DNA of 64,000 bases from Pseudomonadota bacterium (GTDB lineage: Bacteria; Pseudomonadota; Alphaproteobacteria; Paracaedibacterales; CAITNM01), in assembly GCA_046309815.1 (NCBI GenBank), contig JBKCOJ010000007.1:26179-90178 (forward strand). The letters run 5' to 3'. Within the stretch, counting starts at the first letter, position 1, and every line of letters starts with the position of its first letter. Position numbers and translations under genes: made by a program. The notes below the pieces were generated by a model that saw nothing but the letters and a program-made list of their open reading frames with translations, was not told where the DNA came from and did no database searches. This document shows, in pieces, positions 4,644 to 61,577 of this stretch.

Positions 4644-4677
4644 CACTGGGTACAGCGATCAAGCCGCGGGACGTCAG
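4644..4677 (+). repeat. dispersed hairpin repeat, H3 subtype
   Basis: cactgggtacagcgatcaagccgcgggacgtcag. Confidence 0.6.
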
Positions 4678-4897
4678 AAAAACGGGTGCGTTAAAAATAT
4701 ATAAAATTAAACGTTGATCATAATGATTTTTTGTATTGGCATATTCGTTCTAACATTTTTTTAAAGAAAGTTTATGTACACTCGAATACCCACAATACTA
4801 ATCATCCTATTTTTTAAGCTCTTTAGCCTTGTTGCAGCAGTTCATTGGAATAACCACCCTGAAATAATAGACACAGAAGACAAGATATAAACTTAGT

Positions 4898-5392
4898 TTG
4901 AATTACGATGGAAGTGTCTATAGTCAGCAACCTGGTAATTATTATCTGATGAAGGATCTTCCTCAACGAAGCGCAATGGCTTTTGATCAAAACATTACCG
5001 TTGATCAATATAATTCCAAAGAGTATCAATTGCATTTGCTGGGAGAAATTTTACGCCGTAAAGCCGTTGACCCTTATAGAAATAATTTAGTTGATGAATT
5101 TAGCCGCATTCCAGTGGCGACAGGAATCGTGATGGCGACACAGTTAATTCGAGGTGGACAAGACCCAGATATTTTAAATCGATTTTGGAAAAAAGACGAG
5201 GCATACCATTTATTCTCTAGCACTTATGCCGTAAGAAGAGATAATTTTAATGCACTAACGCTTAGATACCTAAATCGCTATGGCATTCCGGTTGATAATG
5301 CAGAGCTTATCAAAAAGACTATAAATATGCATGCAGCGGAAGTATTTGGGTATGAAGACTATGAAAGTGCCCTTGATTCACTTTTTGTATAA
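4898..5392 (+). CDS. hypothetical protein (body of a possibly frameshifted secreted-protein gene)
   Basis: 164-aa ORF starting at TTG. A 38-codon ORF encoding a signal peptide (4774..4890) ends 7 nt upstream in another frame. Confidence 0.5.
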   Translation: MNYDGSVYSQQPGNYYLMKDLPQRSAMAFDQNITVDQYNSKEYQLHLLGEILRRKAVDPYRNNLVDEFSRIPVATGIVMATQLIRGGQDPDILNRFWKKDEAYHLFSSTYAVRRDNFNALTLRYLNRYGIPVDNAELIKKTINMHAAEVFGYEDYESALDSLFV

Positions 5393-5408
5393 GTTTAAAT
5401 ATTGAAAT

Positions 5409-5446
5409 CACTCATTGGGCCCCGTTTTTCAACGGGGCGTCTATTT
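5409..5446 (+). repeat. dispersed hairpin repeat, H1 subtype (also terminator-like between convergent genes)
   Basis: cactcattgggccccgtttttcaacggggcgtctattt. Confidence 0.7.
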
Positions 5447-5464
5447 AGGTGCTAATAAAGATAA

Positions 5465-6019
5465 CTACCCAAGCAACTTCTTTGCTGTTTCAATAACGCC
5501 CTCAAGAGTGCTTTCGATATGCAAGAATTGTTCGTGTTCTTTGCGTGCAAAATCTTCGTTGATAATGTGATGAAATAGGGAAACTAGGGGATCCCAGTAG
5601 CCATCGATATTAGCAAGAATGATAGGTTTTTGGTGGATATTCAGTTGGCGCCATGTAAAGATTTCAAAAAACTCGTCTAAGGTGCCAAAACCGCCTGGCA
5701 TGATGACAAAAGCATCAGCCTGTTGAGCCATTTGATGCTTGCGCGTGTGCATTGTATCAACGACAAATACCTGATCTAGACCGTCCTGCACGCCTTCACG
5801 ATTATCTAATTGGTGTGTGGTAATGCCAATAACGTGACCACCGTTTGCTATAACTGCGTTTGAAACGCGACCCATCAAACCAAAACGCCCTCCCCCATAC
5901 ACCATATTAAAGCCATTCGTTGCAATGAGTTTTCCAAAATCTTCCGCCGCCTTGTAATACTGAGGGTTAACACGTTCAGAGGCGCCACAATAGACGCAGA
6001 GATATTTGCCTTTAATCAT
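5465..6019 (-). CDS. LOG family protein (cytokinin riboside 5'-monophosphate phosphoribohydrolase-like, TIGR00730-type)
   Basis: The motifs VYGGGRFGLMG and PGGFGTLDEFFE are the LOG-family signatures. Confidence 0.85.
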   Translation of the reverse strand: MIKGKYLCVYCGASERVNPQYYKAAEDFGKLIATNGFNMVYGGGRFGLMGRVSNAVIANGGHVIGITTHQLDNREGVQDGLDQVFVVDTMHTRKHQMAQQADAFVIMPGGFGTLDEFFEIFTWRQLNIHQKPIILANIDGYWDPLVSLFHHIINEDFARKEHEQFLHIESTLEGVIETAKKLLG

Positions 6020-6133
6020 TCTTTATCCTTAATCTTTTCTAGTTCTTCCCACTAGACAAAGGTTTTTGTTCTGTCCCAGAATGACAAAGAGTACTTAAAA
6101 ATTTATTAAAAAGCTAATTTTCAAGGAACGCGC

Positions 6134-8245
6134 GTGTCAGCTGGTGAAATACTCTCAATCAAAATAAACACTTCGTTTGGAGATGGAGCTTTTGTTATTC
6201 AGCAGGCTGTTATTGAGGAAGCGCTATCAGAGCCATATCTTATTGATGTGTATGCATCCACGATGCTTTCTAGTTTTGATGGGGATGACCTGATTTATAC
6301 TAAAGCTGGTATTATTTTCGAAGTCTATGGCGGGAATGATCCCTCAGCTAAAAAGGAAGAGCGCTCTTACCAGGGTATAATCACCCATATGGAACACGTG
6401 CGAACGATTTTTGATGAAAAAAAACAAGTAACACATTTTTTTCATTTTCAAATACGGCCACTTTTTTGGATGTTAAAGCACAGCCGAGATCATCGAATTT
6501 TTCAAGAACAATCAGCGATTGATATTATTCAAACAATTTTTAGAGAAAATGGTTTGTCGGATTTTAAAATACAAGCATCTGGAGGCACGCAAGCACGAGA
6601 ATATTGCGTGCAGTATGGGGAAAGTCATTATGATTTCGTCTCACGATTACTAGAAGAAGAAGGCATTGGGTATTATTTTGTGCATGGTGATTCAGCGCAC
6701 ACGATGGTTCTGTTTGATAGTAATTCAAGTTTTGTGGGTATTGCGCAGGGAAGTTTGCCGTTTTTAAATATCGATACAGAGGGAGCTTTTGTGGATCATG
6801 TGGTTGCGTTTGGGAAAAAATCGCAAGTAGCTGCCAAGGCTTATAAAACTATTGATTACAACTACACGACACCTAATACGCAATTGTTAGGTAACAGCAC
6901 AGGAGCTGGATTTGGCGAGGAAATTTATGAATATCCCGGACTTTTTCAACAATCATCCGTTGGTGCCAAGCTTGCCGACCAGCGCATGGAAGAAATTGAA
7001 TGGTTTACAAAACGTGTGTATGGAAAATCATCCTGTGCAAGTTTAGCACCTGGAACAACGTTTACTCTGGCAGAACATCCTATTACACAGTACAACGCAG
7101 CTTATGCGGTTTCTTATGTAAAGCATGAACTTATTGCGCAGCCTACTGATGAGCACGATACCGATTCGTTTGCTTTAACATACACGAATTCGTTTGAAGG
7201 TTTTTTAAAAACAATTCCTTACAGGCCTTACCGAAAAACGCTGAAACCCCGAATTTATGGTTCACAAACAGCTTTTGTAACGGGAGCCGGCACAGAAGTT
7301 TATGGAGACGCGATGGCGCGCATCAAAGTTAAGTTTCATTGGGATTTGAAAAATCCAAACGATGAAACAAGTTCCCTGTGGGTGCGCGTAAGTCAATCAT
7401 TGAGTGGTGCAAGTTGGGGAGCACTTTACATGCCACGAATTGGTATGGAAGTTGTAGTATCTTTTATCGATGGTGATCCTGATAGACCATTGGTAACAGG
7501 ATGCGTGTACAATCAAGCCTTTATGCCACCCTACTCTCCTAAAGATTCACCTCATTATATGACCTTAAAAAGCAAGACTTTTGACGATGATACGGGAAGT
7601 AATGAATTGCGCTTTAGCGATGAAAAAGGCAAAGAAGAAATCTATTTGCACGGCCAATATGATATGAATACGGTTATTGAGCATAGCCGCACGGAAGATA
7701 TTAAAACGGGTGATGATTCTTTAACTCTTGATGCAGGTGACAAACTTATTCATCAAAAGGGTGATGGCACTATGTTTTTGACGCTTATCGATAGTGGAAA
7801 TCTCACCACTACTCTTAAAAAAGGAAATGTAGTCATTGACGTGAATGGTACTGTTCTTATTAAGGCCACCAAGGCAATTACGGTTACGACACCTGATAGC
7901 ATTACGATCAATGCCGGAAAAAATATCACGATGAAGGCTGGTGAGAATATTGTGATGAATGCTGGAAAAAGTATCCAAAAAAAGGCGGGACAAAATATTC
8001 AATCAACCGCTGGGAAAAGCATTCAAGAAAAAGCCAAAAAAATTCAAGAAAATGCGAGTGCCCAAATTCAACTGAAAACTGCCTCCATGCAGGCAAAAGC
8101 AGGAACATTGATTCAGCTAAAATCTGGAACAGCTTTTAAAGCAAATGCAGGTGCCATAATGGAGATTAAAAGTGGTGGCATGATTAAAGCGGAAGGCGCT
8201 GCTGTTGGTATGTTTAAGGGTGCTATTACGAAGCTTGGAGGCTAA
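6134..8245 (+). CDS. vgrG: type VI secretion system spike protein VgrG (TssI)
   Basis: 703 aa with a GTG start. It carries gp27/gp5-like motifs RIKVKFHWD and WVRVSQSLSGASWGALYMPRIGMEVVVSFIDGDPDRPLVTGCVYN. The C-terminus has beta-helix repeats AGKNITMKAGENIVMNAGKSIQKKAGQNIQ. Confidence 0.92.
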   Translation: MSAGEILSIKINTSFGDGAFVIQQAVIEEALSEPYLIDVYASTMLSSFDGDDLIYTKAGIIFEVYGGNDPSAKKEERSYQGIITHMEHVRTIFDEKKQVTHFFHFQIRPLFWMLKHSRDHRIFQEQSAIDIIQTIFRENGLSDFKIQASGGTQAREYCVQYGESHYDFVSRLLEEEGIGYYFVHGDSAHTMVLFDSNSSFVGIAQGSLPFLNIDTEGAFVDHVVAFGKKSQVAAKAYKTIDYNYTTPNTQLLGNSTGAGFGEEIYEYPGLFQQSSVGAKLADQRMEEIEWFTKRVYGKSSCASLAPGTTFTLAEHPITQYNAAYAVSYVKHELIAQPTDEHDTDSFALTYTNSFEGFLKTIPYRPYRKTLKPRIYGSQTAFVTGAGTEVYGDAMARIKVKFHWDLKNPNDETSSLWVRVSQSLSGASWGALYMPRIGMEVVVSFIDGDPDRPLVTGCVYNQAFMPPYSPKDSPHYMTLKSKTFDDDTGSNELRFSDEKGKEEIYLHGQYDMNTVIEHSRTEDIKTGDDSLTLDAGDKLIHQKGDGTMFLTLIDSGNLTTTLKKGNVVIDVNGTVLIKATKAITVTTPDSITINAGKNITMKAGENIVMNAGKSIQKKAGQNIQSTAGKSIQEKAKKIQENASAQIQLKTASMQAKAGTLIQLKSGTAFKANAGAIMEIKSGGMIKAEGAAVGMFKGAITKLGG

Positions 8246-8247
8246 TA

Positions 8248-9036
8248 ATGAGTATTGAAGCACAACAGCAAATAGAAGCAACAGAGGAGCCACACGCATC
8301 AAATTCAAATACCGAAGCTCCACCAGCTGAAAGTGCAGTTCCTAAAGAACAAGCTACGGATAAATCGCCTGTAAAAAAAAGTCCCATTAAAGAATTAGCA
8401 GAACAGGCAGCGAATCATAATGCCGGGGTGGCTCATGATGGTAAGCTAACCTATACACCCGGATATGAAAAAGATTTTCAAGAAAATGCAGAGATTCATG
8501 AAGAAGATGATGAGAGCGAAGAAGAAGAGGATGACGACGATGACCCCAAGGAAGATCCTCATGCCCCGGAACATGAAGTAAAAACACAAAAAATTGGATC
8601 AAAAACACTGCAAACGGAATTATCGAGAGGACTCAAGCAAGGCCTTACAAGCATCAAGACAAAAGATGGACATTACGAAATGCAGGCGCACTATGTAAAA
8701 GACAAGCTTGATGGATTAACGACGTATTACTTTGCTAATGGAAAAGTTGAGCGCGAAATTCATTTCAAGCATGGAAAAATGCATGGGTCGATGAAGGCTT
8801 TTCATGAGAATGGCCTACCCTCGATGGATGTGGAGTATGAAGATGGACTGATGCATGGCACCACCATCGTTTATGATGATTTTGGGCAAAAACAGGTAGA
8901 GTCGCATTACCAAAAAGGCAAATTGCATGGCGATACGATTGTATTTTCAAATGGAAAACCGTATCTGAAGAAGACATACCACGAAGGTAAAGAAACGCAC
9001 CAGGAATACGACGCCAGTGCAGCACATAGTTGTTAA
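8248..9036 (+). CDS. MORN-variant (YwqK-like) repeat protein with polyacidic N-terminal region
   Basis: It starts 2 nt after the vgrG stop. An acidic tract EEDDESEEEEDDDDDPKED is followed by about 23-aa repeats: YYFANGKVEREIHFKHGKMHGSMKAFHENGLPSMDVEYEDGLMHGTTIVYDDFGQKQVESHYQKGKLHG. Confidence 0.7.
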   Translation: MSIEAQQQIEATEEPHASNSNTEAPPAESAVPKEQATDKSPVKKSPIKELAEQAANHNAGVAHDGKLTYTPGYEKDFQENAEIHEEDDESEEEEDDDDDPKEDPHAPEHEVKTQKIGSKTLQTELSRGLKQGLTSIKTKDGHYEMQAHYVKDKLDGLTTYYFANGKVEREIHFKHGKMHGSMKAFHENGLPSMDVEYEDGLMHGTTIVYDDFGQKQVESHYQKGKLHGDTIVFSNGKPYLKKTYHEGKETHQEYDASAAHSC

Positions 9037-10006: not shown

Positions 10007-11107
10007 CTATTTTTTCTTTTTACCGTCAAGCATTTTTAAAGAGCCAGCATGGCCTTTGTGCATATCCCAGTCTTTGCCGGTAAAGTGTTCACGAATTGGC
10101 GCCGTTGTTTTCTTACCGATGCTATCATAATTTTGTTTAATCCAAGCATCAGCGGCATCACGTCCCTTTTGGAAAAGGTGATCAAAGAAGTCCATTTCTG
10201 TGTTTAATTTACTTCCCCAACCAAGTTCTTGGAAACATGCTTCGTCTTCAATTAAATGCATGTATACGCGCTTCATGCGACCTTCAGGAATAACACCTTC
10301 ATCTTGCAATTGACCAATCATATGAATTGCACGCATTTCACGAACAACAGACGCGTTGTTTGTGATTTCATTTAAGCGATCACCAATCTCGCGTGCACTT
10401 GTCGGTAATTTGTTTCGAATAGTTGGGTTTAACTGAATTAAAATAATATCAGATGTCTCACAATCATAAATCAGAGGGAACATCACAGGGTTTCCAATGA
10501 AACCACCATCCCAATAATATTCGCCATTTACCAGTACAGCGCCATGAATAGTGGGCAAACAAGCTGTTGCAAGTAGACACTCTATTTTCAATTCTTCTGT
10601 TTTAAACACCGTTAATTTTCCAGTGAATACGTGTGTAGCACAAAGGAAAACTTTACATTCCTTTTGTTTGCGTAACAATTCAAAGTCAAAAGTTTTTGCA
10701 ATCACGTCACGTAATGGATCTGTTTTCATAGGATTAAGCTCATATGGAGAATACATACGGCTTAGGTATTCAAACATCAAGAAACCTGGAGAGTTATACA
10801 TTGTCCAGTTATTCATGTATTTATCAATTGGACCACGATTGTTAAGAGAGCTATTTTTGCCACTTTCACAAATACGTTCCCAAAATAATCTTAGCGTAGC
10901 ACGCGCTTCTTTATTGCCACCCTTAGCCAAACCTTGTGCTGCAGCTACTGCGTTCATACCGCCCGCTGAAGTTCCTGTAAGGCCTTCAATTTCAAAACGA
11001 CCATCTTCTAATAACTTATCAAGCACACCCCAGGTAAAAGCACCATGAGAACCACCGCCTTGACATGCAATAGCCACCTTTTTTTTCTCTTTAGCTTTAG
11101 TTGTCAT
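10007..11107 (-). CDS. patatin-like phospholipase
   Basis: Oxyanion box CQGGGSHGAF, nucleophile elbow GTSAGG and catalytic DGG (WDGGFIGNP). Confidence 0.85.
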   Translation of the reverse strand: MTTKAKEKKKVAIACQGGGSHGAFTWGVLDKLLEDGRFEIEGLTGTSAGGMNAVAAAQGLAKGGNKEARATLRLFWERICESGKNSSLNNRGPIDKYMNNWTMYNSPGFLMFEYLSRMYSPYELNPMKTDPLRDVIAKTFDFELLRKQKECKVFLCATHVFTGKLTVFKTEELKIECLLATACLPTIHGAVLVNGEYYWDGGFIGNPVMFPLIYDCETSDIILIQLNPTIRNKLPTSAREIGDRLNEITNNASVVREMRAIHMIGQLQDEGVIPEGRMKRVYMHLIEDEACFQELGWGSKLNTEMDFFDHLFQKGRDAADAWIKQNYDSIGKKTTAPIREHFTGKDWDMHKGHAGSLKMLDGKKKK

Positions 11108-18144: not shown

Positions 18145-19293
18145 TTAGGATTCCTCAGCCATCAGTTCATGCAGTTGTTGTTCGGTGATGCCTAAAATGT
18201 CACAAATATCTTCGGTTTTCATTTCTTTATTTTGCATGCGTGTAATTGCTGCGCGTTTTGTTCTTTTTTCACCAACTTTTTCGCCTTCTTCACGTTCCAC
18301 CGCCAGAGTTGCCGCATAAAGATCTCGATTCGCTAAATTCTCTCTGTATTCACCCGTCACTCTCGGACTCCATTGCTGTAAATCTAAACGGTTTAAGGCG
18401 TTGTATATGGCAACAGGCATTATTCCTGTACCTTCGTTATACCATTCTGCTACTTTTGCTGATGTGTACTCCTGCGCATGATGTAAGACACTCACCCACC
18501 AATCCGCCATCGTAAAATCTGCCTGTGGCGGAAACAACGATTTTGTTCTTTCCGCACGTGGTAACTCCACTTGGATCATCTGCAAATAATCAATTTGCTG
18601 TCCCGATTTATCCGTTAAAACATAGTGCTTAATAAATTGCTCTGTTGGTAATGGGTGTTCTTTTACTCTATCCACTAAAGTATCTGGCACCTCTGCCTTA
18701 AGACCACGAATGCGATTCGTGTCATAATCTAAAATTTGTAAGGCAATTACTGGTTTTAGGTTAATATACCAATTCTCAGCACTGAGTTGCCTTTCTGATA
18801 ATTGGCGCGCATAAATTCCACACGCATAAAATAAAGCTCGCTCATCAAACATCACATGACGCTGCGCCTGCATTTCGATAATGTAATGAACCCCGCTTTG
18901 CGATGTCACGTGCAAATCCATGAAGGTCTGTTTCTCTCCCGGGTGCCTAAGCGCTGGGATAGCAACAGGGGCTTCCTCAACTTCCACCACTGGGTCGCCC
19001 CTGAAGGGAGGAATAAAGCAATTTAAGAAAGAAATCACAATTGAAGGGTCACTTCCCATCGATAAAGATAACATATGCTTAAAAGCGGTATCGGTGGTAG
19101 CAATCGCGTAGTGATAGTCGCCAAGCTGATGCAACAATGCTTCTTTGACAACTTCATCGGAAGATTGTTCGATGGTGCGTTTGCGTGATAGTCCTTCTGG
19201 ATCTTTTGATTCCATCGCAAAGGAAGAACCAAGAGCAACACAAATGCCAAAAATAAAAAACTTCTGTAAAAATTGTTGGTTTTTTTTAACCAT
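18145..19293 (-). CDS. Rpn-family / PD-(D/E)XK nuclease family putative transposase
   Basis: FKHMLS...FMDLHVTSQSGVHYIIEMQAQ (D...E.Q nuclease core) with a C-terminal TEDICDILGITEQQLHELM helix-turn-helix-like tail. I prefer the ATG at 19293, which has a GAGGAG SD, over the ORF-track start at 19332. Confidence 0.68.
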   Translation of the reverse strand: MVKKNQQFLQKFFIFGICVALGSSFAMESKDPEGLSRKRTIEQSSDEVVKEALLHQLGDYHYAIATTDTAFKHMLSLSMGSDPSIVISFLNCFIPPFRGDPVVEVEEAPVAIPALRHPGEKQTFMDLHVTSQSGVHYIIEMQAQRHVMFDERALFYACGIYARQLSERQLSAENWYINLKPVIALQILDYDTNRIRGLKAEVPDTLVDRVKEHPLPTEQFIKHYVLTDKSGQQIDYLQMIQVELPRAERTKSLFPPQADFTMADWWVSVLHHAQEYTSAKVAEWYNEGTGIMPVAIYNALNRLDLQQWSPRVTGEYRENLANRDLYAATLAVEREEGEKVGEKRTKRAAITRMQNKEMKTEDICDILGITEQQLHELMAEES

Positions 19294-19453
19294 CGCGTTG
19301 TTCTCCTCGCCAGCTCTCCCCTGTCTTCCCATTACTACATTTCTCTTGTTCTTTCAAGAAAAAATGAGAAAAGCTAGGCATCTACATACTTTAGCTATTG
19401 TGCAGAAAAGCTATTCGACTTACCATTAAATGAGGTATTAAAAATCCAAATGC

Positions 19454-21262
19454 ATGGCAAAAGTCGACGACTCATTAGTTCGCTATTACCAAGAAGAGCT
19501 TGATTACTTACGTTCAAGCGGAAAAGAGTTTGCCAAACAATATCCAAAAATTGCGCGACGCCTCGAATTAACGGATGGAGAGTCCCCAGATCCACAGGTG
19601 GAAAGGCTGCTTGAATCATTTGCTTTTCTAACGGGACGTTTGAGTAGAGCGATTGATGATCGATTTCCGCAAACAGCGCAGGCTTTATTGAGTGTTTTGT
19701 ATCCTCATCTGGTTAATCCTATTCCAGCGATGGCAATTGCAAAACTACATGTTGATCATAGTCAAATTCCAGCAGATAAAGGGTATTATCTTGAGAAAGG
19801 CACGAAGCTTTTAGCGCATTCAGTTGAGGATGTGCAGTGCCAATTTCAAACAGTTTATAACACCCATCTTTGGCCTTTAAATATTCAAAAAGTTGAGCTG
19901 GTAGCAAGAGATGCTTTCACTTTTGAACACTCACCTCAACATCATTGGCTTTTAAAAATGACGATTCATTCAAAAAATTCGCCAATAAAAGCGATGAATG
20001 TGGATAATTTATTAGTGCATATTTCGTGTAATTGGATAAAAGCAAATTTGTTTTATGAAGCGTTATTTAGTGAATGCGCTGGCAAACTGTATGTTGCAAC
20101 GGATGAAAAAATAACGGCTGTAGAAGCGTGTACGCTGGAGCCTGTTGGCTATAAGCGTGATGAATTACCCCTTCCTGTTCCTGATTATAGTTTGCATCAT
20201 TATGCGCTGTTTCAAGAGTACTTCCATTTCAGTGAAAAATTTTTATTCTTTCGTATTGCAGGATTGCAAAAAGCCATTGCAGCGCTGGCCCCGCAGCAGG
20301 AAATGCATCTTTTAATTCCTTTAAAAAATGCCATGGTTTTTCAGCAAAAAGGAATTGATGCATCGGTATTTTCGTTGAACTGCTTGCCAGTTGTGAACTT
20401 ATTTGAGCGGCCTTCTGATCCGATACGTATTCATCATCGCCATTTACGTTATCGTTTAATCCCTGACATACGCCGAGAACGCACGAGCGAAGTGTACAGC
20501 GTTCAGCATGTGGAAGGCATTGAAGAAAAGACGCAAAAAGTCATTGAGTATAAGCCGTATTATGGTCTTGAAACGCGTGATAATGAAGGGTTCTTTTGGA
20601 CTGCTCAACGTGTGCCAGCGGGTCTTAGAGGACTGCCAGGAACTGATGTGTATTTATCCTTTATCAACCGAAATTTTAATCCTATTAAGGCGAAAGACGT
20701 TGTTGTAACGGCAAAAATTTTGTGCACCAATCGGTATCTGGCAGATCAATTAGCTGCTGGCTCGCTGCTGCAACCAGAGGGCAAAGCGCCGGTTTTAAAG
20801 ATTACGCTATTGAATAAGCCCACTTCGCAAAATTACACGATGCTGGATGGAGAGAGTTTGTGGATGTTGATATCGCAGCTTTCGACCAATTATTTAGGCG
20901 TGCTTAATGTTAATCAAGGCTTAAATTCTTTGAAAGAATTTTTGTATCTTTTTGCGAGTCGTTACCCCGATAAACCTGCGTCTTCTATTGAAGATTTGAA
21001 AAATATGACCATTAGCCAGATAACGAGGCGCTTTGGTGCGGATGCGTGGCGTGGTTTTGTGCAAGGCTATAAGGTGCAGCTTGAGATGGAAAAAACGAAT
21101 CATGAAGGCGGCAGTAATTTGATTTTGGGAACGATTTTGAATGCATATTTTAGCTCAACAGTCAGTTGGAATAGCTTTGTCGAGTGCAGTTTGAATGATG
21201 GCAAAAATAATGGAGAATGGATGCAATGGCAGCCCCAGCCCGGCGTGCAAACGCAGTTGTAA
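19454..21262 (+). CDS. tssF: type VI secretion system baseplate subunit TssF
   Basis: The N-terminus YYQEELDYLRSSGKEFAKQYPKIARRLEL...DPQVERLLESFAFLTGRL is the TssF (ImpG/VasA) signature. Confidence 0.9.
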   Translation: MAKVDDSLVRYYQEELDYLRSSGKEFAKQYPKIARRLELTDGESPDPQVERLLESFAFLTGRLSRAIDDRFPQTAQALLSVLYPHLVNPIPAMAIAKLHVDHSQIPADKGYYLEKGTKLLAHSVEDVQCQFQTVYNTHLWPLNIQKVELVARDAFTFEHSPQHHWLLKMTIHSKNSPIKAMNVDNLLVHISCNWIKANLFYEALFSECAGKLYVATDEKITAVEACTLEPVGYKRDELPLPVPDYSLHHYALFQEYFHFSEKFLFFRIAGLQKAIAALAPQQEMHLLIPLKNAMVFQQKGIDASVFSLNCLPVVNLFERPSDPIRIHHRHLRYRLIPDIRRERTSEVYSVQHVEGIEEKTQKVIEYKPYYGLETRDNEGFFWTAQRVPAGLRGLPGTDVYLSFINRNFNPIKAKDVVVTAKILCTNRYLADQLAAGSLLQPEGKAPVLKITLLNKPTSQNYTMLDGESLWMLISQLSTNYLGVLNVNQGLNSLKEFLYLFASRYPDKPASSIEDLKNMTISQITRRFGADAWRGFVQGYKVQLEMEKTNHEGGSNLILGTILNAYFSSTVSWNSFVECSLNDGKNNGEWMQWQPQPGVQTQL

Positions 21263-24827: not shown

Positions 24828-25173
24828 TTATATGGATTCGCGCTCCACCATAATTTTTGAAATACCCCTCAAAAAGTACATTAAGATCTTGCAAATAGCC
24901 CTCAAGAATAGCGACTGTTAATTCATTAGGAAGTTGTGATGAATCAGCAATAGAAAAATTCCTCTCCATGGTATCATCTTCATCAGGAGAAGCTATTATT
25001 ATGTGAAAATTAACTGGTTTATGTAATTCTTGGCTTTGAGACTTAAGATAATTCATACTTGCAGGACCAATTAAAAGATGTTGCGATTCAGGCGACTCTG
25101 AATCCATTGCGGATGCGGTACACACAAAACCAAACAGGAATATCACAAAAAGTAACTGTTCAAACTTTTTCAT
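24757..25173 (-). CDS. hypothetical secreted protein
   Basis: 138 aa with a clear signal peptide MKKFEQLLFVIFLFGFVCTASA. No recognisable family. Confidence 0.5.
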   Translation of the reverse strand: MKKFEQLLFVIFLFGFVCTASAMDSESPESQHLLIGPASMNYLKSQSQELHKPVNFHIIIASPDEDDTMERNFSIADSSQLPNELTVAILEGYLQDLNVLFEGYFKNYGGARIHINGWVPDTAYKATGFDYVEPGATQ

Positions 25174-25324: not shown

Positions 25325-25362
25325 GGCTTGGATAAGGTTTGCTTACGCAGGCTTAGAATGAC
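25325..25362 (+). repeat. dispersed hairpin repeat, degenerate H4 subtype (..GCAGGCTTAGAATGAC)
   Basis: ggcttggataaggtttgcttacgcaggcttagaatgac resembles the copies at 26361, 34196 and 61545. Confidence 0.5.
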
Positions 25363-25391
25363 TTAATGAACGGCTGTGACTACTTTCAATA

Positions 25392-26352: not shown

Positions 26353-26360
26353 TAAAAAAC

Positions 26361-26488
26361 CTGGATTCTTACGCCTGCTGGCGCAGGCTCAGAATGACGA
26401 GGGAATTTATATCCCTAGATCCTCGGACTGCAGCGCTTTCGCGCTTTGCCAGGGATGACAAAGGGACTCCCTTCACAAGAATGACAAC
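26361..26488 (+). repeat. three consecutive dispersed hairpin-repeat units (H4-type, each ending RRRATGAC)
   Basis: ctggattcttacgcctgctggcgcaggctcagaatgacgagg; tagatcctcggactgcagcgctttcgcgctttgccagggatgacaaagg; gactcccttcacaagaatgacaac. Confidence 0.7.
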
Positions 26489-26494
26489 TTGTGC

Positions 26495-27435: not shown

Positions 27436-27472
27436 CATAAGCGAAAGAGTGTGTGAAGGTTCGGCCCTGAGG

Positions 27473-34073: not shown

Positions 34074-34482
34074 CACTGAATCCCCCAGTCAAGCCACGAG
34101 ACGTCATAAGTAGAGCAAGTCGCGAGAAGTCTCGCGTCTTTGTGAGGAGAAATAGCTTTGTAGCAATCCAGTTTTATGTTTCGATATTATGAACTGGATC
34201 CTTACGCCTGCTTCGCAGACTCAGGATGAAGAGGAATGAGGAAATATAGGCTCAGGATGACGGAAAAAGAAAAGCGCTGGAGAATGACGAAGAGGAGAAC
34301 TGTGCAGGCTTAAGATGACAAGGAACGAGATCACGTTCGTACCAATGGGCAGTTAGCTCTCTCAACGTCTTCCTGGAGCGCAGCTCCCGTAAGGGTCCAG
34401 TTCTATAATATCGATAGCTATGCACCGAGCTCCGTTCCCATTCTTCAACGGGACTGCGTTTTCAACGGGGCGTCTATTTTTT
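34074..34482 (+). repeat. cluster (~410 bp) of dispersed hairpin-repeat modules
   Basis: It contains H3-like cactgaatcccccagtcaagccacgagacgtca. It also holds four H4 units (gcagactcaggatgaag, aggctcaggatgacgg, ctggagaatgacgaag, gcaggcttaagatgacaagg). It ends with H1 ccgttcccattcttcaacgggac...ttcaacggggcgtctattttt. Confidence 0.75.
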
Positions 34483-47829: not shown

Positions 47830-47952
47830 GAAACTAAACTAAGCCAAAAGTGCTTAAAAAACAAGCAGAAAATGAGGGGTTAGGACTTATACAAATAATA
47901 TTCACTGAATTTCCACGCCCGCCTAAGCAGCATCAAGACAACGAACTTAAAA

Positions 47953-49257: not shown

Positions 49258-49333
49258 GAGAATCCAATATTATCCCAATTAGGTCATTTACACCTATTTC
49301 AGGGCATTAAGCAAGATATTTTAGTAATATCCT

Positions 49334-49365
49334 CTAGGTCACGCTATCAAGTAGTGAGGCATCAT
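49334..49365 (+). repeat. dispersed hairpin repeat, H3 subtype (degenerate)
   Basis: ctaggtcacgctatcaagtagtgaggcatcat, compared with 59621 aactgggtcccgctatcaagtagcgggacgcc. Confidence 0.55.
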
Positions 49366-51377: not shown

Positions 51378-51406
51378 ACAATGGCGCTTATTACAGCGCC
51401 TTGTTT
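51378..51406 (+). terminator. rho-independent terminator
   Basis: GGCGCT-tattac-AGCGCC followed by ttgttt. Confidence 0.5.
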
Positions 51407-51410
51407 GAAT

Positions 51411-51472
51411 TGACTGGATCCCGGCTTTCGCCGGGACGTCTCTATTAGCCATCCACGGGGATGACGCCTAGG
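51411..51472 (+). repeat. dispersed hairpin repeat, H2 subtype plus GGGGATGAC tail
   Basis: tgactggatcccggctttcgccgggacgtctctattagccatccacggggatgacgcctagg. Confidence 0.75.
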
Positions 51473-53257: not shown

Positions 53258-53360
53258 ATAAGATATTATTTTTTGATTGAAGGTATATTACAGAAAAAAA
53301 TCAATAAAGAGAATCAATATGATGATTTTTTTAGAATATATATGGTATTAATGGCATTTG

Positions 53361-53418
53361 GCTGGATCCCGGCCTACGCCGGGAAGACTATAAAAAGCAT
53401 ACCGGGAAAACTATAAAA
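53361..53418 (+). repeat. dispersed hairpin repeat, H2 subtype with duplicated tail
   Basis: ggctggatcccggcctacgccgggaagactataaaaagcataccgggaaaactataaaatg. Confidence 0.75.
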
Positions 53419-53435
53419 TGATTTGTTTGAAAAGA

Positions 53436-53475
53436 AAAACCCAATGCCTGATTAAGACATTGGGTTTTGATTTTT
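53436..53475. terminator. bidirectional rho-independent terminator (serves minus-strand gene 53477..54418)
   Basis: AAAACCCAATG-cctgattaaga-CATTGGGTTTT with A/T runs on both sides. Confidence 0.55.
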
Positions 53476-54418: not shown

Positions 54419-54506
54419 GTCGCACCCTTCAAAAAATTTTGCTTCTTATTTGCTTTTTATATAGAGATTCAATTTTTAAAAGCAAGTTTTTTATATCGAT
54501 GGCAGT

Positions 54507-54543
54507 TGGCTGGATCCCGACCTACGCCGGGAAAACTATAAGA
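54507..54543 (+). repeat. dispersed hairpin repeat, H2 subtype
   Basis: ttggctggatcccgacctacgccgggaaaactataag. Confidence 0.72.
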
Positions 54544-54550: not shown

Positions 54551-55468
54551 TTATTGGCGGAATAATACGAAACGTAACCATTTAAGCGGCGGGAAGCGCC
54601 AGGCTTTGTGCTCGATATAGGACATGGAGGATTGCTGGTACGGCATGAGACTATAGCGTGCTTCTTGTGGGTGGCGATGTTGCCATTTAATAATAGGTTG
54701 GAAATCATTCTCAGGCAACGCAATTATCCGGTTGGGATGCTTTAAAAAGGTTACGTTTAGCAGGCTTTGATCGTGGTGATGCATGCCTTTTCCATAGCCT
54801 TTTATATAATTGGGGTTAAGGCAGAGATCTAACCAAGTTTTTACAAAATCACGCGTGACTTTACAATTACGAAATATCATTAGCCCAGCCCATAGTTCTC
54901 GCATTTTTGAAAAATCAGGATGCATTGAGACATGAAGTTCGGCTGCTACTTGGGGATCAATTGTTTTATTTAAGATGCTGTATATTTCTTCAGTGTACCT
55001 GTAAAATACGGCGTCGTAGTCATGCAAATATTTCAAAATCGGTGCGAGGGAGCCCGTAAAAATCGCGCCAGAATCCGCATACACGATGATGCTGCCTTCG
55101 GACGTATTTTCCAGCGCTTTTAAAATGAAATAGGGCTTCCACAACCAAAACCCTGCTCCAGATTTTTGATCAAGAATGGCTTTATGCTTTTGGTAAAAGG
55201 CTTTATCAATGTGTGAACGACGGTAATTAAAAATAAAATCAATGCCGCGGTTTAAGGCGGATTGCGCCAAGGCATTTTGGTTTTGGAAAAAAACTTCATG
55301 ACCATCTGCGTAGGATACTAAATAAACGCCGTCGTGGTAGAGTTTTTCTGGTGCACCAAAATCTGGATGAGCAACGGAATCAATACTGCGCGTGGAAATG
55401 TCAAAAAGAGTGTAGCCAAGCTGCAGGCAGGCATAGCAGATAGAAAATAGGATGAGGAATTTTTTCAT
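54551..55468 (-). CDS. hypothetical signal-anchored protein, possibly a nucleotide-sugar transferase-like enzyme
   Basis: MKKFLILFSICYACLQLG N-terminus. GAGFWLWKPYFILKALE...IIVYADSGAIF recalls small glycosyltransferase-like families. Weak assignment. Confidence 0.45.
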   Translation of the reverse strand: MKKFLILFSICYACLQLGYTLFDISTRSIDSVAHPDFGAPEKLYHDGVYLVSYADGHEVFFQNQNALAQSALNRGIDFIFNYRRSHIDKAFYQKHKAILDQKSGAGFWLWKPYFILKALENTSEGSIIVYADSGAIFTGSLAPILKYLHDYDAVFYRYTEEIYSILNKTIDPQVAAELHVSMHPDFSKMRELWAGLMIFRNCKVTRDFVKTWLDLCLNPNYIKGYGKGMHHHDQSLLNVTFLKHPNRIIALPENDFQPIIKWQHRHPQEARYSLMPYQQSSMSYIEHKAWRFPPLKWLRFVLFRQ

Positions 55469-55477
55469 AGTTCTACT

Positions 55478-55715
55478 CACTGGACTGGATCCTCACGCCT
55501 TCTTCGAAGACTCAGGATAACGGGAATGGTGAACAAAGAAGTGTCAGTGACATAACAATTCATCGTTATGCTATCGATGCTATTCACTGGACCCCGTTTT
55601 TCAACGGGGGGTCTATAATTTCTCAACGGACGTGTGGCTATGCTCTTTATCAGAGATGATGAAACTTTTCTCTGAGCCCCGTTCCCGTTCTTCAACGAGA
55701 CGTCGTTTTTCGATG
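55478..55715 (+). repeat. cluster (~240 bp) of dispersed hairpin-repeat modules
   Basis: H4 cactggactggatcctcacgccttcttcgaagactcaggataacggg. H1 cactggaccccgtttttcaacggggggtctataatt. H1-like gagccccgttcccgttcttcaacgagacgtcg (compare 34420-34460). Confidence 0.75.
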
Positions 55716-55724
55716 AGAGAGAGG

Positions 55725-56324
55725 TCATATTCGTCCTAATAGTTCTTGCTCAAACATCTTAAATGCTTTGACGCGGTGGGATGTTTGCGCTTTTTCAACC
55801 TTAGTCATTTCGCCATAGGTGCGTGTATCATTCAAGGGGATAAACATGGAGTCATAGCCAAACCCATTTTCACCGCGCGCAGGCCATATAAGCGTGCCAT
55901 GACTTTCAGCTTTGAAAATTTTTGAGGAACCATCAGGCCAAGCAACCGCTAGTACGCAGACAAAGTATGCATCTCGAGGTTTATCATCAAGTAAAGCATG
56001 AACTTTTTCACGAGCAGCGGCAAAATTACGATCTGGCCCTGCCCATCTGGCGGAATAAATACCTGGCATGCCACCAAGTGCAGGTACGACAAGACCTGAA
56101 TCATCAGCTAGGGAAACATGTCCTGTCTTTTCAGCTGTATAACGGGCTTTTAAAAGAGCGTTACCTTCAAAAGTATCTTCGGTTTCTTCTGGTTCCTTTA
56201 TGTTTAGATTTCCCGAACAGTTGATATGTAAGCCATACGGGGAAAGTAGAGTTTGTATTTCTTCTAACTTTCCCGTATTGTGCGTCGCTAAAATAAGTGT
56301 GTCGCCCGCCTTAAGCTGCAGCAA
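55725..56324 (-). CDS. rdgB: dITP/XTP pyrophosphatase (Ham1/RdgB)
   Basis: LATHNTGKLEEI, ETEDTFEGNALLKA, DDSGLVVPALGGMPGIYSARW and SHR. Confidence 0.88.
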   Translation of the reverse strand: MLQLKAGDTLILATHNTGKLEEIQTLLSPYGLHINCSGNLNIKEPEETEDTFEGNALLKARYTAEKTGHVSLADDSGLVVPALGGMPGIYSARWAGPDRNFAAAREKVHALLDDKPRDAYFVCVLAVAWPDGSSKIFKAESHGTLIWPARGENGFGYDSMFIPLNDTRTYGEMTKVEKAQTSHRVKAFKMFEQELLGRI

Positions 56325-57730: not shown

Positions 57731-59608
57731 ATGTTACGTTTATCTTTCATTGCCCTTGCCGCTTTTTGTTTTTCTTTAGCGGCAGAAAAAAACCATGCAA
57801 TGGCACGATTTGGTGCCCCTTTATACTCAAAGGACTTTAGTTATTTTCCCTATGTAAATCCCAACGCACCAAAAGGTGGAACGTTACGATTAGGAACAAT
57901 TGGTACGTTTGATACATCAAACCCGCATGCAATTAAGGGTACAAAAGCTGAAGCTGGCTTGATGTTATGCCTTGATCCTCTGATGATGCGCAATAGCGAA
58001 GAACCATTTACGCTTTATGGGCTAGTTGCTGAGTATGTAGATGTGGCCGCAGATAATTCGCAAATCACTTATTATCTTAACCCTCACGCAAAATTTCATG
58101 ATGGCACCCCAATTACTGCAGAAGATGTAAAGTTTACGTATGAATATCTGCGTGACCAAGGAAATCCTGCGTATAAACACTACTATAGTAAAATCGAAAA
58201 AATTGAGATTATTGATACGCTAACAATACGGTTAACGCTTAAGAAAGAAGAAGATGGAAGATATAATTCCGAGCTTCCGTTTAATTTATCTTTATTGCGT
58301 CCTTTGCCAAAGCATGCACTAGAAGGAAAAGAACTTGCATCTGTTAATTTTCAGGAATGTCCTTGTTCAGGTCCCTACAAAATTGGCGAGGTAGATTTAG
58401 GTCACAGTATTACTTACGAGAAAGTTCCAAATTACTGGGCAGAAAACCTGAATCTAACAAAAGGTATGAACAACTTTGACAAAATTCGTATTGATTACTA
58501 CAAAACAACGCAGGCACAATTCCAGGCATTTACGGCGGGTGAGTTCGATGTGTTCTTTGAAACGAATCCGTCAAACTGGGAAACAGGATATGATTTTCCA
58601 GCAATTAAGGAAGGACGCGTAAAGAAAGTAGACTTATCGCACGAGCGCCCTGTGGCTGTGCGTACGATCTTGCTCAATTTGAAAAAGCCTATTTTTGCTG
58701 ATTGGCAGGTTCGTAAGGCTCTTGCTTTAGCATTTGATTTTGATACGTTAAACAAGATGATTTTCTCAGGATCGATGTGTCCTGTAGATAGTTTGTTTGC
58801 CAACACCAGCCTTGCGCATAAGGGTGCTGCTGAAAGTGAAGAACTTAATATACTTGAAGCATTTAAAGACAAGGTTCCCGCTGAGCTGTATGAGCCAATG
58901 GTTAAAACAGGATTTATGCCTGCTCGCACAAAAGGCGATGGAGATCAACGTGAAAACCTAGATCAAGCAGGAAAATTATTAGATAGCGCAGGTTGGATTA
59001 TTAAGGATGGTATGCGCGTAAACAAAGCTGGCGAAAAGCTCAAAATCGAAATTATGTATAAAGATTTGAAGCTTGAAAAGATTGTATTGGCATTCAAAGA
59101 AAGTTTGCGCAAGCTTGGTGTTGAGCTAATCGTGCGTGTGATGGATAACGCTCAGTATGAAAACCGTGTAACGGATAGAGATTTTGATATGATCATCCAC
59201 ACCTGGGCAAACGGCACAAGCGCTGGGAATGAGCAAATGCTTTACTTTTCACAAAAATCTGCAGAGGTTTCTGGAAGCAGCAATTATAACGGCTTGAAGG
59301 ATCCTATTGCTGAGCAGTTAGCTTTAAATGTTACCGAAGCAAAAACACCTGAAGAGCTTGCACCGAGAGTACACGCTCTAGATCGTTATATTATGTGCAT
59401 GTATTACCAAATTCCGTTGTTTTACGATAATAAAAACAGGTTTGCGTACTGGGTGGATAAGCTGGCGTTTCCAGAAGTGCATCCAAAGATTGGCACGAAC
59501 GTGATGGCGTATGCGTGGCAGCCAGAAGGAGTGCAATCTGCGGCGACAGAAGAAAAACCAGGATTCTTTGCAAAGCTTAAGAAATTTTTCCAGTCGTTAG
59601 CTGGTTAA
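57731..59608 (+). CDS. ABC transporter substrate-binding protein, family 5 (YejA-like peptide binding)
   Basis: Signal peptide. PYVNPNAPKGGTLRLGTIGTFDTSNP is typical of YejA-type SBPs. No permease or ATPase genes are adjacent. Confidence 0.82.
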   Translation: MLRLSFIALAAFCFSLAAEKNHAMARFGAPLYSKDFSYFPYVNPNAPKGGTLRLGTIGTFDTSNPHAIKGTKAEAGLMLCLDPLMMRNSEEPFTLYGLVAEYVDVAADNSQITYYLNPHAKFHDGTPITAEDVKFTYEYLRDQGNPAYKHYYSKIEKIEIIDTLTIRLTLKKEEDGRYNSELPFNLSLLRPLPKHALEGKELASVNFQECPCSGPYKIGEVDLGHSITYEKVPNYWAENLNLTKGMNNFDKIRIDYYKTTQAQFQAFTAGEFDVFFETNPSNWETGYDFPAIKEGRVKKVDLSHERPVAVRTILLNLKKPIFADWQVRKALALAFDFDTLNKMIFSGSMCPVDSLFANTSLAHKGAAESEELNILEAFKDKVPAELYEPMVKTGFMPARTKGDGDQRENLDQAGKLLDSAGWIIKDGMRVNKAGEKLKIEIMYKDLKLEKIVLAFKESLRKLGVELIVRVMDNAQYENRVTDRDFDMIIHTWANGTSAGNEQMLYFSQKSAEVSGSSNYNGLKDPIAEQLALNVTEAKTPEELAPRVHALDRYIMCMYYQIPLFYDNKNRFAYWVDKLAFPEVHPKIGTNVMAYAWQPEGVQSAATEEKPGFFAKLKKFFQSLAG

Positions 59609-59620
59609 GGTTTAGTAGTT

Positions 59621-59659
59621 AACTGGGTCCCGCTATCAAGTAGCGGGACGCCTTATATC
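59621..59659 (+). repeat. dispersed hairpin repeat, H3 subtype
   Basis: aactgggtcccgctatcaagtagcgggacgccttatatc (stem CCCGC/GCGGG). Confidence 0.72.
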
Positions 59660-60269: not shown

Positions 60270-60491
60270 ATGTGTAAATTATTTTTAGGGATCTTTTTAT
60301 TGAGCGCATGCGCTGCGGGATTTTCAACAGACATGGCGGCAGTTGGGCAAGAAATGGCGTTAGAGAATGCTGAAATGGTTGCTGAAGGAATTGTCGATGA
60401 AGTAACCAAAGACAAATATCCTGATCAGCAAGATGAAGATTCTGATAAATCAGAAGCAGAAAAGCCTGCCAAAAAGAATGAAGTAAATTAA
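60270..60491 (+). CDS. small acidic lipoprotein
   Basis: MCKLFLGIFLLSAC has lipobox LSAC. It lies inside the segment bracketed by the 32-nt direct repeat. Confidence 0.45.
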   Translation: MCKLFLGIFLLSACAAGFSTDMAAVGQEMALENAEMVAEGIVDEVTKDKYPDQQDEDSDKSEAEKPAKKNEVN

Positions 60492-60559
60492 TACGTCGGC
60501 GTTTGCGTCTCTCCCCAAAAAAAATGTTGCGGAATCAGCTTTGCAATAGCGATATTACC

Positions 60560-60596
60560 CACTGAATACCGTTCTTCAACGGGACGTCGTCTATTT
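60560..60596 (+). repeat. dispersed hairpin repeat, H1 subtype
   Basis: cactgaataccgttcttcaacgggacgtcgtctattt. Confidence 0.7.
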
Positions 60597-60630
60597 AGAA
60601 GGGTTGAACTGCTTGAACCAAGTTATTACG

Positions 60631-60662
60631 GGTGCTATGGTGCTTGCAGAAAGTTTACGCCA
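60631..60662 (+). repeat. 32-nt perfect direct repeat, right copy (5' end of hemF)
   Basis: Identical to 60189..60220. The flanking tattRcS upstream is also similar. Confidence 0.95.
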
Positions 60663-61531
60663 GGTTCGATGTGAGCATCCCTCCCTTTTATGCTGATGAA
60701 TTGCACGCGTGGTATTCAGATTTACAAAATCAAATTTGCCATGCTTTAGAAACGATTGAACAAGAATCGTTAGCACTACCACTGTATGATCAATGGCAAC
60801 CCGAGACGTTTGAAAAACGCAGTTGGGACTATAGCCAATCGGGTGGCGGGCAAATGCGGGTTTTGCAAAACGGTCGTGTGTTTGAAAAGGCCGGCGTGAA
60901 TGTTTCATGCGTATGGGGCGAATTTTCTAAAGAATTTGCGAAAGAAATTCCCGGTGCTGAAGAAGATCCGCGCTTTTGGGCAAGTGGAATATCGCTGGTG
61001 ATTCATCCACGGAATCCTTATGTTCCTATTGTACACATGAATACGCGCCACATTGTCACCACAAAATCATGGTTTGGTGGAGGAGCAGATTTAACGCCGA
61101 GCATGCCGCTTGAAGAAGATACAGCAGCGTTTCATCAAGCATTTAAAGAGTGCTGTGATAGCCATGATGCAGGGTATTATGATCGATTTAAGCAATGGTG
61201 CGATGAGTATTTTTATTTGAAGCATCGTAAAGAAATGCGCGGTATTGGGGGCATTTTCTATGATTATGTCAATACAGGCGATTTTGAAGCGGATAAGGCT
61301 TTCAATAAAAGTGTGGGAGAAACTTTTCTTAAGGTTTATCCAAAAATTGTCCGGCGAAGAATGGAAATGACGTGGGGAGATGTGGAAACGCAAAAGCTTC
61401 AGCATAAGCGTAGTCGCTATGTAGAATTCAATTTAATTTATGATCGGGGCACACATTTTGGATTAAAAACCGGAGGGAATACCGATGCGATTTTGATGTC
61501 GATGCCCCCATCCGCAAGCTGGGCTGCTTAG
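60632..61531 (+). CDS. hemF: oxygen-dependent coproporphyrinogen III oxidase
   Basis: RSWDYSQSGGGQMRVLQNGRVFEKAGVNVS, HPRNPYVPIVHMN and GGIFYD motifs. The exact start is uncertain. In-frame GTG/TTG candidates lie at 60632 and 60644 inside the duplicated 32-mer and at 60674 just downstream of it. Confidence 0.88.
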   Translation: MLWCLQKVYARFDVSIPPFYADELHAWYSDLQNQICHALETIEQESLALPLYDQWQPETFEKRSWDYSQSGGGQMRVLQNGRVFEKAGVNVSCVWGEFSKEFAKEIPGAEEDPRFWASGISLVIHPRNPYVPIVHMNTRHIVTTKSWFGGGADLTPSMPLEEDTAAFHQAFKECCDSHDAGYYDRFKQWCDEYFYLKHRKEMRGIGGIFYDYVNTGDFEADKAFNKSVGETFLKVYPKIVRRRMEMTWGDVETQKLQHKRSRYVEFNLIYDRGTHFGLKTGGNTDAILMSMPPSASWAA

Positions 61532-61532
61532 T

Positions 61533-61577
61533 AGAGATGGCTCTTGGCGCCTGCTTTCGCAGGCTCGGGATGACAAG
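61533..61577 (+). repeat. dispersed hairpin repeat, H4 subtype
   Basis: gagatggctcttggcgcctgctttcgcaggctcgggatgacaagc. Confidence 0.7.

Follow-up and report, generated by a model that had tools for sequence, protein, structure and literature searches.

Probable CGTC-tagged hairpin repeats, single and almost uniformly oriented, in chromosomal DNA of an uncultured alphaproteobacterium

Two described systems bear closely on a group of short intergenic hairpin elements found in a 64,000-nt stretch of contig JBKCOJ010000007.1 (hereafter the window) from an uncultured alphaproteobacterium. Repetitive extragenic palindromes (REPs) of the CGTC-tagged superfamily (Di Nocera, De Gregorio & Rocco 2013; families CGTC-1 to -4) carry a CGTC tag (variants TGTC and CCTC), a stem of 8-9 bp starting with two A-T pairs, a loop of 4-5 nt and a CCA tail (PMC3733652). 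They are found mainly in alphaproteobacteria, between unidirectional or convergent genes, in several stem and loop subtypes per genome and mostly as head-to-head dimers; they have no associated transposase and no link to RAYT, and they include the Neisseria repeat dRS3 and the Rickettsia repeats RPE-4 and RPE-6 (PMC3733652). The dRS3 repeat, in turn, is the core of a 28-nt oriented motif of Neisseria, NTS (CGTCATTCCCGCGMAVGCGGGAATCYRG) (Chenal et al. 2025, PMC11893778). SsnA, a 94-aa single-domain GIY-YIG nuclease, binds and cuts NTS only as single-stranded DNA (ssDNA) and only on the NTS-sense strand, where the cut falls a few nucleotides to the 5' side of the tag; the C that follows the palindrome matters most for binding, and GTC, the three bases that precede it, for cutting (PMC11893778). 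Homologues of SsnA, single-domain GIY-YIG proteins of the type cd10448, are often flanked by the motif in an arrangement, NTS-ssnA-NTS, that resembles an insertion sequence (IS), and symbionts are enriched among the motif-rich genomes (PMC11893778).

We assign the elements of the window, with a probability of about 0.7, to a lineage-specific set of CGTC-tagged REPs within the superfamily of Neisseria dRS3/NTS and Rickettsia RPE-4/-6. The superfamily itself has already been described; what is unexpected here is only the arrangement of the copies, which are single and co-oriented, and the presence of polar half-copies beside them.

An earlier note on this DNA had claimed at least 18 loci, and all 18 of its coordinates bear the described hairpin element. 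Reading of all intergenic gaps added copies at 26413, 34074, 34431, 39026, 47903 and 55677, and the entry at 34460, previously listed as an H1 hairpin, turned out to be the right half only (Table 1). A degenerate pattern for the stem types H1 and H2 has seven matches in the window, all on the + strand, with an expectation of 0.00 from 100 dinucleotide shuffles. With up to two mismatches allowed, the tail motif CACTGGATCC occurs at 12 intergenic element sites on the + strand and one on the - strand, and the H4 tag-side motif CTCAGGATGAC has 22 matches against 9.6 expected, the eight intergenic ones all being on the + strand. A covariance model built from seven H1/H2 copies yielded 12 window matches, again without exception on the + strand; the model is confined to H1 and H2 because MAFFT misaligned H3 with these types. 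Rfam contained nothing relevant, either at the gathering threshold for the whole window or at E<=1 for 51-62 kb. The intact H1-H3 copies are DNA hairpins with folding z-scores of -3.3 to -5.0, and the decayed copies at 4644, 25325, 40983, 47903 and 49332 fold no better than shuffled sequences.

In the curated tally, 23 hairpin-bearing copies of the window lie on the + strand and one on the - strand, and the 11 half-copies are all on the + strand. With flanking extensions of 8.7 kb (left) and 8.4 kb (right), which add 17 kb and bring the total to 81 kb, there are about 29 copies on the + strand and two on the - strand; the binomial p values, computed for earlier and slightly smaller tallies, are 2e-5 (20:1) and 3e-6 (26:2). 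The previous statement that every copy reads in one direction is therefore nearly, and not entirely, correct. One copy, at 34365-34403, is on the - strand, and a second is located in the right extension, 7 kb past the window end, head-to-head with a + copy.

Read on the - strand, each copy consists of a 5' (C)GTC tag, a GC-rich stem with a loop of 3-5 nt, and a 3' tail of the form C-CAG(TG). In most copies the tag immediately before the stem is (GA)CGTC, GTC or TGTC, for instance GACGTC-CCGGC in e51411, CGTC-ATTCTGAG in e26361 and TGTC-ATCCCGAG in e61536, and it is lost in decayed copies. On the + strand the tail reads TGG, usually within CACTGG, in 15 of 21 aligned copies, and TGA or TAG in most others. 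Beyond the tail, an AT-rich left extension of about 16 nt, TATYGATRSYATTCAC, is conserved in H1, H2 and some H4 copies, bringing the H1/H2 unit to about 50-55 bp. The stems of H1-H3 measure 7-9 bp, have no A-T pairs after the tag and are fused to it directly, and the H4 stem is a two-tier structure of about 15 bp within an AT...AT frame. Loops are of 4 nt in H1 and H2, 5 nt in H3 and 3-4 nt in H4.

The four recurrent stem types recognized earlier are borne out, and they differ by paired changes. In the H1/H2 alignment, three of the seven stem pairs differ in both arms and none in a single arm, and 94% of the alignment cells are paired, compared to 29-53% in controls with slid partners. Judged by eye, the H4 stems behave likewise: the outer stem is ATTCT/AGAAT or ATCCT/AGGAT, and the inner stem GCCTGC/GCAGGC, GCTTGC/GCAAGC, GGAGC/GCTCC or AGCGC/GCGCT.

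The elements thus share with the CGTC-tagged REPs an unpaired (C)GTC tag at one foot of a GC-rich stem, a loop of 4-5 nt and the CCA tail (TGG on the + strand), as well as an alphaproteobacterial host, a location in unidirectional and convergent gaps, the coexistence of several subtypes in one genome and the absence of a nearby transposase. As in NTS, asymmetric flanks give each copy a direction, and intact copies of each of the four types have kept both the GTC that precedes the palindrome and the C that directly follows it. The - strand of the H4 copy e26361 reads CGTCATTC...GAATCCAG, its outer 8+8 nt being identical to those of the Neisseria NTS. The host belongs to a symbiont-type lineage, in line with the published enrichment (PMC11893778). 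Since the superfamily has a known enzyme, SsnA, that acts strand-specifically on ssDNA, the earlier idea of a REP-like hairpin with a dedicated enzyme or an ssDNA-linked mechanism points in the right direction; SsnA is no RAYT. Transformation control, the role shown in Neisseria, may not apply to the present host, which is probably not naturally competent.

Table 1. Hairpin elements and tag-side fragments in the window
Element	Position	Strand	Type and structure	Context and scores
e4644	4644..4676	+	H3b-like, loop TCAAG, left arm decayed	starts 3 nt past stop of + gene 4236-4640
e5409	5399..5447	+	intact H1 (GCCCCGTT tttc AACGGGGC), left extension, GTCTAT tag side	convergent gap; covariance model E 9.5e-12; folding z -4.96
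tag-side fragment	6075..6085	+	CCCAGAATGAC	divergent gap
e25325	25326..25364	+	decayed H4 (..GCAGGCTTAGAATGAC)	27 nt from stop of - gene 25392-26279
e26361	26360..26399	+	intact H4, two-tier stem; - strand = CGTCATTCTGAGCCTGCgccaGCAGGCGTAAGAATCCAG	
e26413	26413..26485	+	H4-like, inner stem AGCGC/GCGCT, and a further tag-side fragment (..CACAAGAATGAC)	adjoins stop of - gene 26495-27361
e34074	34074..34105	+	decayed H3b-like (CACTGAATCCCCCAGTCAAGCCACGAGACGTC)	covariance model E 0.058
e34196	34192..34322	+	H4, one arm mismatch, followed by three tag-side half-copies (34239, 34275, 34303)	
e34400m	34365..34424 (hairpin 34365-34403, own left extension to 34424)	-	TATCGATATTATAGAAC TGG ACCCTTACG GGAGC tgc GCTCC AGGAAGACG; left half near-identical to e34196	sole - copy in the window
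e34438 and e34460	34431..34480	+	e34438: H1, no tail, one mismatch; e34460: H1 right half with GTCTATTT	E 0.0017
e37881	37881..37910	+	rare stem GACCCTcCC/GGaAGGGTC	right after stop of + gene 36578-37870
e39026	39026..39090	+	decayed duplicate of e37881, hairpin lost, and tag-side fragment TTTTAGGAATGAC	
e40983	40969..41029	+	exact tail CACTGGATCC; rare weak stem (CAAGGCATGCCTTG)	covariance model E 0.24
e43091	43077..43125	+	H1, one mismatch	right end adjoins stop of - gene 43124-43705
e47903	47903..47945	+	decayed H4-like	orthologue in relative L197 better preserved
e49332	49332..49361	+	decayed H3a (CACGCTATCAAGTAGTGAGG)	
e51411	51398..51465	+	intact H2 (TCCCGGC tttc GCCGGGA CGTC) and tag-side fragment CACGGGGATGAC	11 nt past separate terminator hairpin 51383-51400; H1+H2 pattern and covariance-model match
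e53361	53345..53420	+	intact H2 and tag-side half-copy 53396-53420	separate terminator 53436-53468
e54507	54493..54542	+	H2, one mismatch	8 nt from stop of - gene 54551-55468
e55478	55478..55522	+	H4, variant inner stem GCCTTC/GAAGAC, tail duplicated (CACTGGACTGGATCC)	
e55585	55571..55640	+	intact H1 and tag-side half-copy (TTTCTCAACGGACGTG)	covariance model E 1.8e-12
e55685	55677..55705	+	H1, no tail (CCCGTTcttcAACGAGACGTCG)	covariance model E 0.023
e59621	59610..59659	+	intact H3a (GTCCCGCTA tcaag TAGCGGGAC)	directly after stop of + gene 57731-59608; covariance model E 0.044; folding z -4.34
e60560	60546..60597	+	H1, one mismatch, tag GTC duplicated	
e61536	61541..61575	+	H4 (GCCTGC tttc GCAGGC TCGGGATGAC), degenerate tail	convergent gap

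Applied to public metagenomes, the H1+H2 pattern retrieved hundreds of canonical CGTC REPs (consensus gTTCA-TGGGTCCCGGCyTTCGCCGGGATGAC) in at least 119 foreign loci; among the matches listed, one locus (L111, inside the window) belongs to the window organism. Among the matches listed, the 87 close pairs comprise 74 head-to-head, eight tail-to-tail and five tandem ones, in agreement with the dimers described in the literature. The window copies, in contrast, are single and co-oriented 23:1: there is no head-to-head pair in the window, one distant tail-to-tail pair (34192+/34365-) and a few tandem ones, and a single head-to-head pair is present in the right extension. A further difference from the published repeats is the conserved 16-nt AT-rich extension beyond the tail. 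Of the copies listed for the 119 foreign loci, 121 of 235 are on the G-rich strand, a comparison that is uninformative because these copies are mostly symmetric dimers. Stems of the H1 and H4 types also occur in three unrelated contigs (L175, L240 and L248), and hence the stem types are not private to the window genome. Viral contigs scanned for H1 and H4 cores likewise had CGTC repeats of these types in unrelated organisms only; a scan of genome contigs with the H1 pattern gave 44 single matches in unrelated phyla, which equals the chance expectation.

One of the unrelated loci, L109, contains at 3165-3870 a single-domain GIY-YIG gene of 101 aa (PF01541, E 2e-14) that is flanked on either side by CGTC REPs. 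The gene has its stop codon inside a CGTC REP, the head-to-head partner of this repeat is downstream, and another REP is found 260 bp upstream. The locus independently reproduces the published NTS-ssn-NTS arrangement. Two other foreign loci show mixtures of repeats. The 13.6-kb contig L175 (52% GC, extreme GC skew of +0.34) has dense arrays of differing hairpin repeats, nearly all co-oriented (e.g., at 150-570 and 10250-10670), among them TGGATTCCGCCCcaaGGGCGGAATGACG and a CGTC repeat of the H1 type (CTGGGCCCCGTTCTCCAACGGGGTGAC). The contig comes from an unrelated organism and has the look of a mosaic of hairpin repeats clustered in one orientation. In L116, a contig of 39% GC, three GTAG-type REPs (GGGCGGAC n6 GTCCGCCC CTAC) stand beside one CGTC-type repeat at 8254-8743; the presence of both superfamilies in one organism has been reported for some species (PMC3733652).

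The genes of the window are evenly split between the strands (29 on +, 28 on -). When the GC skew is split by gene strand, an intrinsic excess of G over C is seen on the + strand, +0.039 at all positions and +0.117 at third codon positions, and it holds in genes of both orientations. The whole window therefore probably belongs to one replichore, in which the + strand has the leading-strand sequence and hence serves as the lagging-strand template. The - strand, which carries the sense that an SsnA-type enzyme would cleave, would then be the leading-strand template. A link between the orientation of the elements and replication, which neither PMC11893778 nor PMC3733652 addresses, is plausible, the replichore being read from GC skew only.

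The half-copies add a polarity of their own. All 11 partial copies in the window consist of the tag and the adjacent arm, and they are placed on the tag side (right on the + strand) of a full copy, such as those at 34239, 34275 and 34303 next to e34196, at 53396 next to e53361 and at 55617 next to e55585. SsnA makes its cut on the corresponding side of its motif (PMC11893778). Speculatively, the half-copies could be scars of repeated cut-and-repair or of template switching.

Based on these observations, we tentatively suggest, as a possibility rather less than even, that in this endosymbiont-like lineage the repeats occur as single, replication-oriented copies, with the strand cut by an Ssn-type enzyme kept on the leading-strand template and half-copies piling up where the enzyme cuts. 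The elements would act, or spread, while the DNA is single-stranded, and would otherwise be tolerated passengers at the 3' ends of genes. Their co-orientation would reflect the asymmetry of replication, the strand cleavable by an SsnA-type enzyme being the one rarely exposed at the fork, and it could arise either by strand-biased insertion or by selection against copies in the other orientation.

Several points weigh against this reading, some touching the family assignment and others the link to replication. The published stems start with A-T pairs, which are missing after the tag in H1-H3, and the two-tier stem of H4 is longer than the published 8-9 bp. The strict search pattern for Ssn-related motifs (SRM), as repeats of this kind were termed in 2025, is HGTCWYN(0-2)YYVSBRHN(0-5)WNVSBRGN(0-2)RNCYNB and has one match in the window (e53361, - strand) against a shuffle mean of 0.16; only one of the 24 copies thus fits it, and the others fail either at the WY that follows the tag or through the greater stem length of H4. 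No GIY-YIG or ssn gene was found in the window, the extensions or the loci of four relatives considered below by Pfam search or by tblastn with the L109 protein, and the window and its extensions contain no transposase of a relevant kind. Moreover, the activity of SsnA is lost when the palindrome sequence is changed (PMC11893778), and so the four or more stem types would require several enzymes or a relaxed one, unless most copies are relics. As for replication, the case comes from the GC skew of a single stretch of 81 kb, and the head-to-head dimers of other genomes, in which both templates bear the cleavable strand, speak against strong counter-selection as a universal rule.

The position of the elements relative to genes raises the question of whether they act in RNA. 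In the window they occupy six of seven convergent gaps, eight of 12 gaps between two - genes and four of 13 between two + genes, and none of the ten divergent gaps apart from one tag fragment; one + copy is located in a divergent gap of the right extension. The distance to stop codons, of genes on either strand, is about 0-60 nt. Such placement, together with GC-rich, stable hairpins, the published view that many REPs are transcribed (PMC3733652) and the detection of e51411 by a loose terminator scan, would be expected of intrinsic terminators or stabilizers of mRNA 3' ends, that is, of RNA elements selected for their hairpin structure. However, the asymmetric flanks have the same DNA orientation after + genes (four gaps), after - genes (eight gaps) and in six of seven convergent gaps, so that the sequence transcribed would vary from one setting to another. 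Between 40 and 60 kb, a T-run-like feature accompanies one of nine elements (e51411), and canonical T-run terminators are separate structures beside the elements (40804-40830, 51383-51400 and 53436-53468). Taken with the uncompensated decay of copies and the lack of an Rfam match, this makes a function at the RNA level unlikely. The orientation independent of the genes and the separate canonical terminators indicate that the elements are not intrinsic terminators, and on both counts, the indifference to neighboring genes and the exclusion of termination, the earlier note was right.

Known mobile systems offer other explanations of the hairpins. The elements resemble the classical GTAG-type REPs, BIMEs and REPINs in being short intergenic hairpins with a conserved unpaired tetranucleotide at one foot, in being thought to be handled as ssDNA, and in keeping the pairing of subfamilies through changes on both arms; the orientation bias of IS200/IS605 elements, which insert into the lagging-strand template, is also known. 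Mobilization by a RAYT, an IS200/IS605-like Y1 transposase, is nevertheless very improbable here. The tag is (C)GTC, no GTAG or CTAC is present at either foot of the hairpins, the copies are not arranged in REPIN doublets, and the published CGTC families have no RAYT association (PMC3733652). The RAYT or IS200-like partner that the earlier note had proposed to look for was not found within the 81 kb: neither the set of about 55 window proteins scanned nor the annotated extensions contain a Y1_Tnp domain. Further, IS608, ISDra2 and other IS200/IS605 elements are autonomous and encode a Y1 transposase with covalent intermediates, and the putatively active strand of the window elements would, if our strand assignment is right, be on the opposite template.

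An origin as fragments or terminal repeats of a miniature inverted-repeat transposable element (MITE) or an IS could account for the conserved 16-nt AT-rich left extension of H1/H2 and for units of about 50-55 bp. It appears most unlikely: no terminal inverted repeats, target-site duplications or flanking direct repeats were found, the two flanks are unrelated to each other, no larger element has the same ends, and the sole transposase-like gene stands in a single context and is not flanked by elements. It is more conceivable, but still improbable, that the elements are chiefly target sites of recombination or integration whose oriented use sets their orientation. The Neisseria dRS3 is a documented target of filamentous-phage and IS110-type recombinases (PMC11893778), and oriented targets, REPs among them, have been invoked to explain the orientation bias of the IS110 family. 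In the window, however, none of the 24 copies is interrupted by an IS110/Piv-type gene, a prophage or an insertion, and a use as targets would be compatible with replication-oriented CGTC-tagged REPs rather than replace them.

The transposase-like gene just mentioned (18145-19332, - strand) encodes a 395-aa PD-(D/E)XK 'transposase' (PDDEXK_2, PF12784, Rpn/YhgA-like). It is located between two large genes of no assigned function and tssF, a context that is the same in 18 of 18 contigs.

The host of the CGTC-tagged elements is an uncultured bacterium found repeatedly, as a clone, in freshwater metagenomes, and the window is chromosomal DNA with the housekeeping genes tsaD, dnaB, tyrS, ddl, ftsQ, ksgA and dksA. 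DnaB is 63-65% identical to its counterparts in Candidatus Finniella, Paracaedibacter and Odyssella, which places the host near Holosporales/Paracaedibacteraceae. Around dnaB, the variants in the population are all identical, with no indel polymorphism. The window was compared with the dnaB loci of four relatives (L196-L199; DnaB identity 93, 89, 86 and 80%; 75 kb). The H1+H2 covariance model detected no H1-H3 element below E=1 in these 75 kb. In the relatives, the syntenic gaps that correspond to e43091, e39026, e40983 and a 488-bp cluster adjacent to dnaB are short and hold no element, e43091 in particular being missing from the gap in L196 and L197. On the other hand, e47903 has a better preserved orthologue in L197, and in L196 an H4 copy with the same orientation lies near Sel1 genes. 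The H4 copies are therefore shared and old, and for H1-H3 the data suggest either a recent expansion in the lineage of the window or a loss in each of the four relatives.

Single copies decay neutrally. The element e39026, duplicated together with its paralogous gene (repeat D2), lost the hairpin by uncompensated changes, and the same is true for e47903 when compared with its L197 orthologue. The earlier suggestion of selection on structure thus stands for the differences between subfamilies, in which both arms change together, and fails for single copies; the paired differences among subtypes would reflect the needs of propagation and not the upkeep of each copy.

The genes duplicated with e37881 and e39026 are two tandem paralogues at 36578-39015 (430 and 331 aa; no Pfam match) built up of internal repeats of 102 nt (34 aa). 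The two share 83% identity in the upstream regions (D15) and 78% at the 3' ends, one hairpin included (D2); the relatives have a single gene of 395-409 aa at this dnaB-adjacent position. Genes in 32518-34008, 40502-40798 and 45483-46061 are missing from the syntenic positions in L196 and L197. They encode a methyltransferase, a 163-aa protein, a 98-aa secreted-looking protein and an AAA_28 protein, and the insertions coincide with element-bearing gaps. A 188-nt direct repeat (26171-26358 and 27253-27440; 86% identity), which covers the starts and upstream regions of the - strand gene 25392-26279 and of its - strand neighbor, the Sel1 gene 26495-27361, is a local duplication that includes a putative promoter region. 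Finally, an apparently divergent gap at 43706-43908 contains on the + strand a gene for the 56-aa ribosomal protein L33, which is annotated in L196 and L197 and was missed because of the 70-aa threshold for window open reading frames.

Among the other genes of the window, those at 6134-8245, 10007-11107, 19454-22230 and 23424-27361 encode the type VI secretion proteins VgrG, TssF and TssG, several Sel1-repeat proteins (repeat unit 132 nt), a protein with MORN repeats and a patatin-like phospholipase, a gene set typically seen in bacteria that live inside protists as symbionts.

For annotation purposes, the elements are best labeled as CGTC-type REP/NTS-like, and small open reading frames that run across them should be distrusted. 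For instance, those at 26259-26498 (+, 79 aa) and 55477-55728 (-, 83 aa) cross hairpin clusters and are almost certainly spurious, repeat-derived entries of the 'hypothetical protein' type.

CGTC-tagged hairpin repeats are among the commonest in alphaproteobacteria, Neisseria, Rickettsia and Wolbachia, and it took until 2025 for the cognate nuclease to be identified. With single copies, near-total co-orientation, an apparently recent expansion of some subtypes and polar half-copies on the cleavage side, the genome of the window is a convenient natural test case for whether such repeats and Ssn-type nucleases interact with replication. If the proposed orientation by replication is true, it would be the first evidence that couples this widespread pair of repeat and nuclease to the replication fork, either because the genome thereby avoids cutting by an ssDNA nuclease of its own or because the repeats multiply by this route, and it would provide a mechanism for a repeat superfamily that has hitherto had no known means of spreading.

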